From Cetorhinus maximus (Eukaryota): a DNA stretch of 64,000 bases. The stretch covers positions 13,206,001 to 13,270,000 of the forward strand of contig NC_135898.1 of assembly GCF_964194155.1 (NCBI RefSeq). The letters are read 5' to 3'. Below the pieces are notes generated by a model. It saw only the letters and a list, made by a program, of their open reading frames with translations, did not search any database and was not told the origin of the DNA. Position numbers and translations under genes: made by a program. Each line of letters begins with the position of its first letter. Within the stretch, counting starts at the first letter, position 1. This document shows positions 23,163 to 46,189 of the stretch, piece after piece.

Positions 23163-26100
23163 CTAACCCAAGTGAGATTTGTTCCTCTTCTTCAGGCCCC
23201 GGTTGCAGGATGGGTTACGGTGTTTCCAGCCTGAGGCACAGCTACTTCTGTAGATCTGCATGTCATCAATTGCAGCATCACTCTGATAGTTCAGTCCCAG
23301 AACGCCTTCAATAATCACCTGAAGAGGCAAAGACAAGTCAGATCTGGGAAGAGAAACTGAGCTACAGTAAAACATTTAACGCCCGGCAACAGATGTTAAA
23401 GGTTTGTTCAAGCAGCTGCTTAGCCTGGATGAAGAATAAACAGACAAACACGGACATTATGGGAGGGAATCAGGCCATTCGGCCTAACCAATTTATCATC
23501 CATGTAAACAAACATTCCAATTAATTTACCTGCCCTGTTCCCATATCCTTTCATCCTTTTTGCTTGAAGCATTTATCCACTTTAACATCGACATAGTTTC
23601 TGCCTCAACTAACTCTGGAATTGAACTCAACGGCCTCATGACTCTCTGTCTCAAGCAGTTTCCTTGCATTATGTTCCAATTTTGTAGTACAGAACTTTAG
23701 CAGTGCTGTAAAAAGACATGCTGTCGAAGCTTTTCATCTTGCACTCATCAGGACGGATTAGCAAAAATACCCATTGTAAATGGAACAATTCATACTGCAT
23801 GAGAAGAGAGTGCTGACTGATTGGCAAGTGGACTGTGATTGGTAGAGGTGTTGCGATGGAGAATGCACCAGGGAACACTTAACTACCAAGCTGATTTCCC
23901 CATGCAACATCAATATCTGTTAGCGTTGTGAGGCCCCAAGGCCAACCCAAGCATACATATCTGTAAACCCGGCAAAGGGACTGGAGTTGTCATCCTTAAC
24001 AAGAGTGACTATATCAACCAAAGACACCCCCGTTCTTAATGACAGGTCCAAATCCTAATCCATCTGGCCTACTACTAAGCATGACTGGACAGACCTGCTC
24101 AAAAACAAGTTACAAAAACACTTCTTGAACTTGTGTAAGACTAACGAGCTGCTGGGTGGTTTATGATAAGATGATAAGATGTGAGGATGAATCCTATGTA
24201 TGGGCTGCCCAAGACACACAAAAGTGAAGTCCCTTTACACCCTATATTATCTATGGCCGGTTCTGCACAACATGAATTGGCCAAATGGTTGGGCGAGTTG
24301 CTACAACCAGGTCTGAGCAAATTTTTCACATACATGGTGAAGGATTCCTTCACCATTGTGAAAAGCATAAAGGACTTGTGTATTGATAGCAAGGCTGTGT
24401 CCATATGCTAGTTTGACATTGCTAACCTATTCACCAATGTTCCACTTCAGGAAGCCATAGACATTTGCACAGCAGCAGTCTAACATGGCAATCTGGATGC
24501 GCTGTCATTGTCTGAATCTGTACTTATTGGACTTATGAACTCAGCAACTCGGGCAGTTGAGTTCATTTTGAACAACACCATGTATGCCTGAATAGATGGT
24601 GTTGCCATAGGATCCCCTTTAGGCCCAAGTCCTCACAAACCTCTTTGTCAGCTTCCAAGAGAAACACATCTTCGATGGAATGCCACCTAACCTCCTACCT
24701 CTCGCATAATTCCAATATGTAGACGACACGTTTGTCATATTTGAATCCGCAGCTGCATGTAAGAATTTCTTTACACACCTTAATGGACTCCATCCTGCAC
24801 TCAGGTTCATCTTTGAAATGGAGCAGTCAAATGAGCCCCTTTTTCTTGATGTGCTAGTTGAGAAATATGACAATGGGTTCTCCACAACTATCTCCCGCAA
24901 GCCTACTTTCACTGGTCAATACACGCGTTGGGATTCCTACAGCTGCACGCACTATAAGATTAGCCTTATCAGCAACCTCATTAATAGGGCCTGAGCCATT
25001 TGCTCACCGCGCAAGCTTGATGCTGAAACAGGGCCCATCAAAGCTGTTGTGTGGGATAATGGCTACCCTGATCAGGTCACTGCTTGCTGTATATCGTGCA
25101 AACTCATGAATGGGCCAAAGGCTACCACTTTCAGTCCTGAAAAGTGCCCAGTCTACCTCAGATTACCCTGAAGGGTAAGGAGGTACCACAAAAATTTGAG
25201 CAACAGGTGAAGCTAGCCGTTTCATGTGCTACTGTACAGTAGCAAAGCGAGTGGTATTCTCTACACACAGGATACTGCCGACACGCCAAAAAGACATTCT
25301 GCCTATCACACAGATGAGTAATGTAGCCTATGAATTTCAGTGCCAGTGTGATGCCAGGTATGTAGGCCTTATGTCCCAATGACTACCGGATCATAGCAAA
25401 CAACAACAGGCAAGGTACAGACCGTACCCAACCAGCCTGTGCTTGCAAAACTTAAACCATAGTGTCCAACATTAGATGTGATTCCGAGATTCGTCATCAC
25501 TTGCTAAACAATCCTGACTGTGCTAAGAATTACAGTGAAAACTAATTTCAGATTATCAGTCGGGTTCGCAGTGTGGCTCACTTACATGTGCTAGAAGCTA
25601 CATATATTGACATACAGGGCCCTGTCCTTTGCAGAAAGAAAAAGCATGCCCATGCATTGCGCCTTTTTCAACCAAACAAAAGCTTGGGGACACCCATTCC
25701 CCATGGTCATGCCTTGACCAATCAGAGTCAACCTGCCCGATTTGAATTTAAACAAAAGCTTGACAGTTAAATGTTTCCTGGTGCATTCTCCATGTACTCT
25801 CGCCAAGTTTGCGGATGACACAAAAAAAAGTGGGAAGGCAAATGGTGAGGATGACAAAAGGAGTCTAACAAAGGGATATAGACAGGTTAAGTGAGTGGGC
25901 AAAAATTTGGCAGATGGAACAATGTGGGAAAATGAGAGGTTATGCACTTTGGCAGGAAGAATAGAGGAGCTAAATATTATAAATGGTGAAAAACTGCAGA
26001 AGGCTGCAACACAGAGGGATTTGGAAGTCCTTGTGCATGAATCCCAAAAAGCTTCAACAGGAAAATGGAATGTTGGCCTTTATTTCAAAGGGAATGGAGT

Positions 26101-45400: not shown

Positions 45401-46189
45401 CCTCCCCCCCGAGCCGTCCAACCCCCTAAATCCTAACTGGTTGCTCAAGGATTAGCAGAGTGGGGCTGAAGTGGGACTGAAAGTTGAGGGACTGCTCACC
45501 TAAACTTGAGCAACTTACCCACAGGGAGAAGAAAGAAATATATCACCATCAACAACCCCCACTTCCTAAGCTAAAAGGGGCAATGGAGCATCACACATAC
45601 ATCTAGAAAAAGACAAGGTAAACATGAAAGGGAACTTACAGGTTTGATGATGTCCCCTTCGATGAGGAAACTCCTCCAGGGCTTTTCATATCGAAAGATA
45701 CCTGTGCCAGGAGAGCAAAAGGTGGCAGTTTTATCCGGTAGCCCAGTCAGGATGATGTATTGAGCAGCCAGTATGCAGAAGACAATAAACCAGCACAAAG
45801 CAATTTGCAACACAGCAACACAATTAAACACTTGTAGCAAGGGGTTGATTTTAAATTGAATAAAAAGTATGCAAGGGGAACAGGTAACTTTCTGAAGAAC
45901 AATTCCATTGTTGTGGGGGACGGGGGTGGGAACCTCGAGATTTCATCCAGTCAAGAAAGTCAATTTCCAGATGTAGGGAAGGATTCATATTTAGTCCTAC
46001 AGCAGCTGCCAGGCAGTGGCTGGAGAATAGTTTACCCCCACTGATAGTAAAATAAACAGAGATGCTAATTCAGGAACATACGCTGGTTAATCCTGACAAT
46101 TGCATCCTCAGCTTTCAGGGTAGTCTTGGTTTGAACGGTATCCAGACGAAAGCTGCTGCCTTGCTTCTTAACCTCGCTCAGTCTGACTG
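23163..46189 (-). CDS. Ovastacin (ASTL)-like astacin-family zinc metalloprotease with mucin-like PTS stalk and C-terminal MAM domain; 5' signal-peptide exon not identified
   Basis: Exons in transcription order: 46082-46189, 45640-45701, 44775-44868, 41792-41909, 39100-39281, 38146-38227, 37256-37416, 31730-35239, 30298-30423, 29653-29783, 23163-23318 (stop TAG). All are GT-AG and phase-compatible. Prodomain [19 protein letters not shown]; zinc motif [38 protein letters not shown]; four astacin Cys; MAM motifs [47 protein letters not shown]. Confidence 0.9.
23721..23756 (-). ncRNA. Minimal type I hammerhead ribozyme motif (Penelope pLTR, family A)
   Basis: Minus strand: CCGTC-CTGATGA-GT gcaag AT-GAAA-AGCT-TC-GACAG. 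CUGAnGA/GAAA core intact; palindromic stem III AAGCTT; stem I GTC/GAC. Confidence 0.7.
25794..26692 (+). mobile_element. CR1 LINE 3' fragment nested in the Penelope pseudo-LTR
   Basis: KFADDTK at ~25805; [11 protein letters not shown]...[12 protein letters not shown]...[12 protein letters not shown] (ORF 25983-26369). Confidence 0.9.
26785..26820 (+). ncRNA. Degenerate second copy of the family A hammerhead motif
   Basis: CTGTC-CTGATGA-GT gcaag AC-GAAT-AGCTTC-AGCAG; GAAA is changed to GAAT and the 3' arm of stem I is altered. Confidence 0.55.
27320..28190 (+). mobile_element. LINE 3' fragment (CR1/L2-like group, family unresolved)
   Basis: [54 protein letters not shown]. Tail caccatcaccttctcaagggcaa...gggcaataatgctggcc. 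Related pieces at ~6910-7150, 18750-19025, 41530-41640, 50540-50740, 57650-57880 and 62110-62600. Confidence 0.8.
28570..28847 (-). mobile_element. CR1 3' fragment (same family as 26370-26640)
   Basis: [25 protein letters not shown]...EMRRNFF. Confidence 0.85.
30770..31130 (+). mobile_element. tRNA-derived SINE
   Basis: Box A-like ggtagcagagtggc, box B gagttcaaatccc, A-rich tail. Related copies at ~7340-7660 (-), 49030-49560, 49690-49960 and 56890-57160 (-). Confidence 0.6.
31136..31553 (+). mobile_element. Non-autonomous Penelope-derived element with terminal inverted repeats and a family B hammerhead motif at 31456-31494
   Basis: The 5' arm ...actcagcaggtctgccagcatctgtggcgagagaagcagagttaacatttcaag is inverted against the 3' arm cttgaaacgttaactctgcttctctctccacagatgc...tgctgagt. 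Motif: AGTT-CTGAAGA-G-GGGTC agacg GACTT-GAAA-CG-TT-AACT. Confidence 0.7.
31730..35239 (-). CDS. Giant 3510-bp phase 1-1 exon: Pro/Thr/Ser mucin-like region plus start of MAM domain
   Basis: Lies within the 1215-aa ORF 31605-35252. Donor GGAG|gtgaga at 31730/31729. Acceptor taken as the first AG after the pyrimidine tract, gaag|AT at 35240/35239 (less certain). Ends [22 protein letters not shown]...[15 protein letters not shown]. Confidence 0.85.
32041..33690. repeat. 30-bp coding minisatellite, ~55 near-perfect copies (degenerate copies continue to ~34130)
   Basis: Unit ggcagggtgaccgcagggggcgtggacccc (+), encoding [10 protein letters not shown] on the minus strand. Confidence 0.98.
37019..37219 (+). 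mobile_element. ~200-bp hairpin-like insertion with 43-bp perfect inverted repeats, hammerhead-like core and 15-bp TSD
   Basis: TSD tattttcttaaaagg at 37004-37018 and 37220-37234. Inverted repeats 37056-37098 and 37178-37220. Motif AGTT-CTGTTGA-A-GGGTC ataaa GACTC-GAAA-CG-TC-AACT at 37123-37161. Confidence 0.85.
37256..44868 (-). CDS. Astacin catalytic-domain exons of the ASTL-like gene
   Basis: [31 protein letters not shown] / [40 protein letters not shown] / [61 protein letters not shown] / [27 protein letters not shown] / [41 protein letters not shown]. Contains the astacin signature HExxHxxGxxHExxRxDRD. Confidence 0.93.
39570..39730 (-). mobile_element. Family B terminal fragment with hammerhead core (39655-39692), nested in a DeuSINE (~39490-39930)
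   Basis: Minus strand: AGTT-CTGATGA-A-GAGTC atacg GACTG-GAAA-CGTT. Flanking text gctggaaaaacttagcaggtctgacagcatc. Confidence 0.65.
39930..40535 (-). mobile_element. Penelope-like element 3' fragment (GIY-YIG end plus 3' UTR)
   Basis: Decayed [16 protein letters not shown] (cf. YIGETxRxLxxRxxEH) at ~40470-40520 and EEQHLIF at ~40335-40355. Ends in the same terminal family as the hammerhead-bearing fragments. Confidence 0.65.
42150..43515 (-). mobile_element. CR1 LINE RT/3' fragment
   Basis: [24 protein letters not shown]...[10 protein letters not shown]...WQMEYNV (ORF 42925-43278); tail complementary to taagaacataagaaatagg. Confidence 0.88.

Follow-up and report, generated by a model that had tools for sequence, protein, structure and literature searches.

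How old ovastacin is, and where its C-terminal region came from, are questions raised by a gene in the genome of the basking shark, Cetorhinus maximus. In a stretch of 64,000 nucleotides (the window) of contig NC_135898.1 (assembly GCF_964194155.1, positions 13,206,001 to 13,270,000), the minus strand carries, from 46327 to 23163 of the window, twelve coding exons with GT-AG ends and compatible phases that form one gene. The joined frame of 1594 amino acids (aa) has no internal stop and encodes, in this order, a signal peptide, a propeptide, an astacin domain, a 1121-aa stalk, a single MAM domain and a basic tail. According to the sections of a 2025 review that deal with the subject, ovastacin is not orthologous to non-mammalian astl proteins, some species have "not yet evolved" ovastacin, and the origin of the ovastacin C-terminal region is unknown (PMC12281054); among the vertebrate rows of another survey, human has the only ovastacin (PMC9848320, Table S1). 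From the comparisons described here, the basking shark gene is very probably an ortholog of ASTL, the ovastacin gene.

Probable orthology with ovastacin

An earlier note, made from the letters of the window alone, had taken the protease to be ovastacin-like rather than a meprin or a hatching enzyme, and maximum-likelihood (ML) trees, a small insert, the cysteine count and the gene neighbourhood agree with it. In trees of catalytic domains, which included neither BMP1 nor alveolin, the gene groups with ASTL, apart from meprins and hatching enzymes, with hatching enzymes as the sister group. A quick tree search over 92 sequences recovered an ASTL group of 34 with a support of 86 in the Shimodaira-Hasegawa-like approximate likelihood ratio test (SH-aLRT). 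When 44 redundant or long sequences were dropped, the resulting 48-sequence tree united tetrapods, including frogs, with the placental ovastacins at 100/98; in a 45-sequence tree without lamprey, bowfin and bichir, sharks joined the tetrapod ASTL sequences (mouse, macaque and elephant among them) at 97/80, and a 20-sequence tree of propeptide, protease and MAM domain gave 86/93.

The catalytic domain has the hallmarks of astacin family M12A, namely HExxHxxGxxH followed by E, and RxDRD, both intact in exon 6, as well as the signal peptide, the propeptide and the four cysteines of the two conserved disulfides (Cys126, Cys147, Cys166 and Cys275). Mouse ovastacin likewise has four cysteines, not the six that, with CUB domains outside teleosts, define the hatching enzymes or C6-astacins (PMC8812170); the best matches among solved structures are hatching enzymes (191 bits, versus 129-130 bits for meprin and BMP1). 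Between the third cysteine and HExxH, an insert of two to four residues is present in 33 of the 34 ASTL-group sequences, the basking shark included, and in none of 58 other astacin domains; lamprey is without it. The genomic context was compared in the basking shark genome only, against a published list that places human ASTL with STARD7, TMEM127, SNRNP200 and NCAPH (PMC10137620, table). The shark gene lies at 13.206-13.270 Mb of its contig, and an SNRNP200-like gene with two Sec63 domains, TMEM127 and NCAPH, each of them the only such locus or one of two, are found at 13.418-13.472 Mb, 165-220 kb from its 5' end. The exon structure also compares well with that of mammalian ovastacin, as the earlier note had suggested checking: the nine exons of mouse Astl (PMC12281054) correspond to exons 1-9 here, and the exon 2/3 border, which in mouse lies inside the cortical-granule sorting motif (PMC5293279), falls at I-N-Q in both.

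Several observations pull in the other direction. Support for the ASTL group falls to 83/55 in the 48-sequence tree, where it includes lamprey, bowfin and bichir, and in the approximately unbiased (AU) test neither a hatching-enzyme placement of the sharks (p 0.068) nor a meprin one (p 0.144; 0.065 once the MAM domain was added) was rejected. DUSP2 has its best match 9 Mb away on the contig of the gene, a START family search found no STARD7-like match near the gene (one unassigned START match lies at 6.96 Mb of the contig), and the gene is directly flanked by a DEAD-box helicase gene downstream (about 7950-13400, minus strand) and a p24/GOLD gene upstream (58690-59050, minus strand), presumably DDX56-like and TMED4/9-like, respectively. 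The earlier placement is borne out by tree topology and not by significant AU tests, a gap that the insert and the synteny fill as two independent lines of evidence.

These AU results would also suit a paralog from the meprin or hatching-enzyme side, with a layout due to retention of an old arrangement or to convergence. Such an origin would fit the names that NCBI gives to some shark models ("meprin A subunit beta-like", "low choriolytic enzyme-like"), the alignment of a cysteine in a loop of the MAM domain with one in the MAM domain of a frog meprin, and the occurrence of astacin-MAM proteins in molluscs, horseshoe crab, lamprey and hagfish (see also PMC9848320, Table S1). It is at odds with the insert, the four cysteines, the synteny and the ML trees, and with the MAM domain itself, whose closest solved structures are MDGA1 (E-value 3e-28) and neuropilin-1 (8e-20), also SR-C, at scores far better than those of meprins (1e-9 to 1e-5). 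Furthermore, ten other astacin loci in the genome, 43-55% identical in exon 6, leave room for separate meprin and hatching-enzyme genes, and we consider the paralog explanation very improbable. Five exons with an astacin zinc motif form a 1.9-Mb cluster elsewhere in the genome (G000:C9:68.2-70.1 Mb), probably of hatching-enzyme-like genes.

The long layout among vertebrates

Of 16 chondrichthyan sequences, four have a recorded MAM domain; the remaining ones are models that are short or incomplete. Among tetrapod ASTL-type sequences of at least 1019 aa, one meprin excluded, it is recorded in 21 of 32, which come from frogs, turtles, squamates, alligator, echidna and wallaby. A search of cluster representatives, in which the best 150 of 26,741 were considered, added MAM-bearing members from X. 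tropicalis and five more frogs and from lamprey (733 aa), bowfin (480 aa) and bichir (1179 aa, two MAM domains), the last three being assigned to the layout less securely. The lamprey sequence, XP_032808037, differs from the "meprin beta" with S-PRO-CD-MAM architecture recorded for lamprey, XP_032808477 (PMC9848320, Table S1). None of the 101 placental-type sequences (97 named and 4 unnamed, 221-657 aa) has a MAM domain; the search that produced them was limited to 716 aa, the search for long sequences held no placental one, and the range of 717-1018 aa was covered by the cluster representatives only. The bird members seen are short and have no MAM domain, and the ASTL group holds no teleost, both of which may reflect incomplete sampling. 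A bird "ASTL" with CUB domains (P0272) falls with the hatching enzymes; this explains why non-mammalian astl genes have been regarded as non-orthologous, and the gene name alone is no evidence.

On these sequence comparisons, the protease-stalk-MAM layout, common to most of the non-placental vertebrates sampled, is ancestral and not shark-specific, and the presence of true orthologs with long stalk and MAM domain in sharks, frogs, reptiles, monotremes and marsupials is well supported. Placental mammals appear to have lost the stalk and the MAM domain. The earlier note had left the choice between an ancestral and a lineage-specific ovastacin; the search that it proposed recovered the architecture in chondrichthyan and reptile sequences, the ancestral alternative gains from its recurrence in chimaera, frogs, turtles, lizards, alligator, echidna and wallaby, and the lineage-specific one is not supported, the layout being common to jawed vertebrates outside placental mammals. 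The placental gene would have been truncated inside exon 9, with the loss of three MAM exons, and its disordered tail of ~150 aa would be the stub of the stalk. A profile of 58 placental tails, however, found no convincing match in 21 non-placental sequences when set against their first 200 stalk residues. Only two of them, echidna (9.1 bits) and a turtle (5.8 bits), scored above shuffled sequences, both weakly; the stub reading accordingly rests on exon position. Short models without MAM domain also occur in zebra shark, ray, skate and birds (P0005, P0011, P0010, P0014, P0017, P0217, P0236); either the gene was truncated independently there too, as in placental mammals, or the models are incomplete.

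It is likely, then, that ovastacin is far older than the 2025 review assumes. We found no account of MAM-bearing ovastacin orthologs in the open PubMed Central and bioRxiv literature, and subscription papers and supplements may mention them; ovastacin as a word is absent from PMC12186722 and PMC9855834. RefSeq already holds gene models, named astacin-like metalloendopeptidase, and the advance is one of recognition, not of a new molecule. Its interest is that the non-placental orthologs offer an origin for the ovastacin tail and date the truncation to the placental stem, that the orthology goes against what is currently stated in the field, and that a single Xenopus gene now allows a direct test of what the frog ZP2 protease is.

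Exons, transcripts and domains

All exons are on the minus strand. Exon 1 (46273-46327, 55 nt), 83 bp upstream of exon 2, carries the ATG and the signal peptide, and its product matches the N-terminus of the shark and skate models P0002, P0004 and P0010. Exon 2 (46082-46189) encodes propeptide that ends in D-A-I-V-R-I-N-Q, where mouse has its cortical-granule sorting motif, and exon 3 (45640-45701) the end of the propeptide, with an 11-residue stretch and the putative latency Asp region. The mature astacin domain begins in exon 4 (44775-44868) and continues through exon 5 (41792-41909), with Cys126, and exon 6 (39100-39281; Pfam Astacin E-value 4e-24), which holds Cys147, Cys166, a two-residue insert of the ovastacin type, HExxHxxGxxHE (39193-39158) and RxDRD. 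Exon 7 (38146-38227) encodes the Met-turn (38165-38151) and exon 8 (37256-37416) Cys275 and the S1' residue Arg258 (Arg264 in mouse). The whole stalk (aa 288-1408) and, from 31871, the first 47 aa of the MAM domain are encoded in one open frame of exon 9 (31730-35239, 3510 nt); the MAM domain goes on in exons 10 (30298-30423) and 11 (29653-29783) and ends in exon 12 (23163-23318), followed by the basic tail with one cysteine and the stop codon (23165-23163), beyond which AATAAA occurs at 22884. The Pfam matches are Astacin for exons 5-8 and MAM for exons 9-11, with none for exons 4 and 12 taken alone. The eleven exons proposed in the earlier note all stand where it placed them, in phase and with GT-AG ends, and only the signal-peptide exon had been overlooked; its prodomain, complete astacin domain, single MAM domain and basic tail are present in the 1594-aa frame. 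It had also reported no CUB, TRAF, EGF or transmembrane segment, with which the lack of CUB, TRAF and EGF matches in Pfam and of a transmembrane segment (best 19-aa hydropathy 1.6) agrees.

The Met-turn reads SILHY instead of SxMHY, the zinc-binding Tyr being retained and Leu230 replacing Met. The same Leu is found in all chondrichthyan sequences examined, in frogs, alligator, one turtle and tinamou, from which we infer that it is a tolerated variant. A pseudogene reading based on this change was rejected because the Leu is clade-wide. For a hallmark of metzincins, a substitution that recurs in this way is unusual; the earlier note, which called the astacin domain complete, had not remarked on it.

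The junction between protease and stalk, 37256->35239, which the earlier note had singled out, is seen in a partial basking-shark protein model (P0001; 732 of 732 residues identical, ending just before the repeat described below) and in a transcript-like record. Four sequencing runs guessed to be RNA (X1-X4; three studies, related organisms) were compared with positions 33960-46400 only. In record 1 of X1 (2047 nt), exon 6 is followed by a gap of 81 letters, the size of exon 7, and then by exons 8 and 9 in direct succession, joined exactly at 37256->35239; over 1244 bases of exon 9 the record differs at 45, about 96% identity, and its RNA status fits since introns are skipped. Record 23 of X4, which comes from a different study, stops at 35239, followed by 33 more letters. 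The possibility that the protease exons and the stalk/MAM exons are separate genes was rejected because the stalk and the start of the MAM domain share exon 9 and the protease-stalk splice is seen. The acceptor of exon 9 is AAG, with no pyrimidine tract nearby, and the models of other sharks have seven extra residues at the start of this exon, the codons of which are kept in the window with AT where AG is expected (35260-35239); a downstream shift of the acceptor by 21 nt in the basking shark lineage is likely, and the contig of a related organism (record 1 of X1) uses the same downstream AAG.

Read-through of the exon-8 donor leads to an in-frame stop (37229-37227) and AATAAA (37223-37218), giving a protease-only form of 296 aa, which could in principle be the main product, the stalk-MAM form being a minor or conditional isoform. 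The close succession of stop and AATAAA after the donor would suit this, as would record 19 of X3, which runs through the donor to 37220, the ray and skate RefSeq models that end in similar read-through tails at 280-295 aa, and the weak AAG acceptor with its seven missing residues. We judge it improbable, given the spliced junction in record 1 of X1, the end of record 23 of X4 at the identical acceptor, and an exon 9 that is open and conserved; moreover, record 2 of X1 is unspliced at intron 5, and read-through may therefore come from pre-mRNA or DNA, and the AATAAA borders on a repeat of very high copy number (depth >100,000 in the bin).

The open frame of exon 9 is unlikely to arise by chance in its non-repetitive 1329 nt, which have 25-26 stops in each of the other two frames and were open in none of 2000 shuffles. 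The unique part of the stalk aligns with the stalks of Heterodontus and Pristiophorus, at 50% identity (489 aa) and 47% (376 aa), respectively. The second half of the stalk (aa 802-1361) is a tandem repeat of a 10-aa Ser/Thr/Pro unit (32043-33716; 55.8 copies of 30 bp, 97% matches), in which 43 units are identical, so the present length of the stalk is recent; degenerate copies extend to about 34016. Pro, Thr and Ser (P+T+S) make up 47% of the stalk, 35% in the unique half and 60% in the repeat half. The young repeats account for the 47-50% P+T+S of basking shark and Pristiophorus, to which the earlier term "mucin" stalk applies, with glycosylation a prediction only; it does not suit tetrapods (27-34%), whose stalks are, by composition, long low-complexity linkers. 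The repeat unit is 10 aa in basking shark and Pristiophorus, 16/48 in Callorhinchus and 32 in bichir, with no repeats in tetrapods, and stalk length in non-placental ASTL models ranges from 700 to 2350 aa; length and composition, not sequence, thus seem to be conserved. A K-R-S-L/F motif ~125-285 aa before the MAM domain in frog, turtle and squamate stalks (P0087, P0090, P0353, P0070, P0067, P0020, P0063, P0069), absent from the shark sequences, may be a convertase site that frees a MAM fragment. Turtle, alligator and catshark models (P0188, P0200, P0208, P0002) skip most or all of the stalk exon and join protease to MAM, by alternative splicing or as a prediction artefact.

The MAM domains of the non-placental ASTL models can be aligned and have a common C-terminal E-G-V-x-G motif. 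In the basking shark, the loop cysteine mentioned above (Cys1453) is an extra, unpaired one; it is kept in lamprey, bowfin, bichir, several lizards, echidna and wallaby, and not in frogs or turtles. Meprins dimerise through one disulfide between MAM domains (PMC3573791); a MAM homodimer predicted without use of an alignment (two copies of Heterodontus residues 1156-1325) scored 0.04.

Composition, repeats and best protein matches of the window are as expected of shark DNA. In introns of the gene and between genes, the window contains fragments with endonuclease- and reverse-transcriptase-like frames (14636-17477 on the minus strand, 24710-28177, and 54711-55403) that we take to be long interspersed nuclear element (LINE)-like retroelements, as well as short repeats of very high copy number near 37020-37220, 39570-39690 and 41540-41640. 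A 113-aa open frame with a Cys-rich start in intron 11 (28846-29184, minus strand) has no Pfam match and is probably non-coding.

A possible role at the egg surface

The reading that we favour, as reasonably probable, is that the gene encodes one secreted astacin zymogen, an ovastacin ortholog in the ancestral long form, that serves as an oocyte cortical-granule protease and clips ZP-family envelope proteins before Asp; an egg-envelope function as such, argued by analogy with mouse, seems probable to the same degree. The signal peptide and the I-N-Q motif of the propeptide would route the enzyme to cortical granules, as the mouse motif does, and a serine protease would remove the propeptide. 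Arg258 and Lys168 (Arg264 and Arg174 in mouse) would then confer a preference for Asp at P1'. Of the substrate-contact residues of mouse ovastacin (bioRxiv 10.1101/2022.12.06.519252), R264, W191 and V157 are kept as R258, W185 and V151, and R174 and F154 are conservatively changed to K168 and Y148, on account of which cleavage before Asp is predicted. At egg activation, clipping of ZP-family proteins would remodel or harden the envelope. The O-glycosylated stalk and the MAM domain, possibly disulfide-linked via Cys1453, might hold the enzyme at the egg surface or in the granule matrix until the stalk is cut. In mouse, the ovastacin tail is reported to be cut off before secretion (PMC12281054) and to remain at the egg membrane (PMC12281054, PMC9848320); this speaks for an anchor that can be released and against a fixed tether. 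An action on egg jelly, egg case or mucus, which the earlier note had also considered, is conjectural. Fetuin-B would restrain the enzyme, and fetuin-B-like inhibitors have been reported down to cartilaginous fish (PMC6400186).

Some of the data sit uneasily with this proposal. Only part of the mouse sorting motif (D.I..INQ) recurs in the propeptide, where it occupies the same exon border, Leu at the Met-turn could reduce activity, and the junctions of exons 9-12 rest on continuous models in three other chondrichthyans (P0003, P0004, P0009) and not on reads. The X1-X4 runs, which might have spoken to oocyte expression, are of low depth and have no library or tissue record. Elasmobranch eggs are physiologically polyspermic, and a polyspermy block is therefore an unlikely role in the shark.

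The same ortholog in the same long form could, alternatively, have had a somatic job ancestrally, as a mucus- or matrix-bound epithelial astacin, with oocyte use arising later in tetrapods or mammals. The polyspermy of shark eggs would suit this, exon-9 sequence does occur in four probable RNA runs from three studies with tissue unrecorded, and mucin-like repeats are found in sharks and bichir; three Pfam family searches for ZP2 in the basking shark genome were blank, a weak point as they had no positive control. We find this scenario rather unlikely, because a propeptide motif related to the mouse granule-sorting signal is kept from sharks to mammals, and because frogs, which carry an ASTL-type gene, have an astacin-like cortical-granule ZP2 protease of unassigned gene (PMC7155028, bioRxiv 10.1101/2023.06.21.544075).

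A wider proposal can be put forward more tentatively, as a conjecture that may or may not stand: ovastacin would be pan-vertebrate (at least jawed vertebrates, perhaps lamprey), with protease, stalk and MAM domain from the start and an ancient task as cortical-granule egg-coat protease; the frog ortholog (X. laevis XELAEV_18018574mg, X. tropicalis XP_031755136) would be the long-sought ZP2/ZPA protease, and the placental C-terminal region the stub of a truncated exon 9 with three lost MAM exons. The pertinent part of a 2023 preprint states that the anuran cortical-granule protease remains to be identified (bioRxiv 10.1101/2023.06.21.544075), and the 2025 review, where it treats the frog ZPA protease, expects it to be a non-orthologous astacin (PMC12281054).

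Among known systems, mammalian ovastacin (mouse P0165, macaque P0134) shares with the shark protein the signal-pro-astacin core, the four cysteines, the insert before HExxH, the S1' Arg, a related though only partly matching propeptide motif, the first nine exons, neighbouring genes and a disordered region after the protease. It differs in that this region is ~150 aa there and 1121 aa here, followed in the shark by the MAM domain and basic tail on three more exons; the shark Met-turn has Leu, and catalytic identity is only 47-49%. The order of protease, long low-complexity stalk and MAM domain is the same in Heterodontus (P0003), Callorhinchus (P0009), X. tropicalis (P0353), Chrysemys (P0070), Pogona (P0020), Tachyglossus (P0083) and Notamacropus (P0081); these RefSeq/UniRef models are automatic only and bear mixed names, and the tetrapod stalks, at ~30% P+T+S, are without tandem repeats. 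Meprins alpha and beta also combine astacin and MAM, with an acidic P1' preference and a MAM loop cysteine at the aligned place, but the shark gene has no TRAF, EGF or transmembrane part, a stalk separates its protease from a MAM domain nearer to those of MDGA1 and neuropilin, catalytic identity is 36-39%, and meprins lack the insert. Hatching enzymes and other C6-astacins are the sister group in the trees and the best solved-structure matches; they have six cysteines and CUB domains instead of four cysteines and MAM, no insert, and a different neighbourhood (syt13, prdm11, cd82; PMC8812170). Finally, medaka alveolin and the anuran ZP2/ZPA protease are cortical-granule astacins that harden the egg coat (PMC7155028), the function proposed here; alveolin consists of signal, pro and catalytic parts only (PMC9848320, Table S1), and the link between the frog enzyme and the frog ASTL gene is hypothetical.

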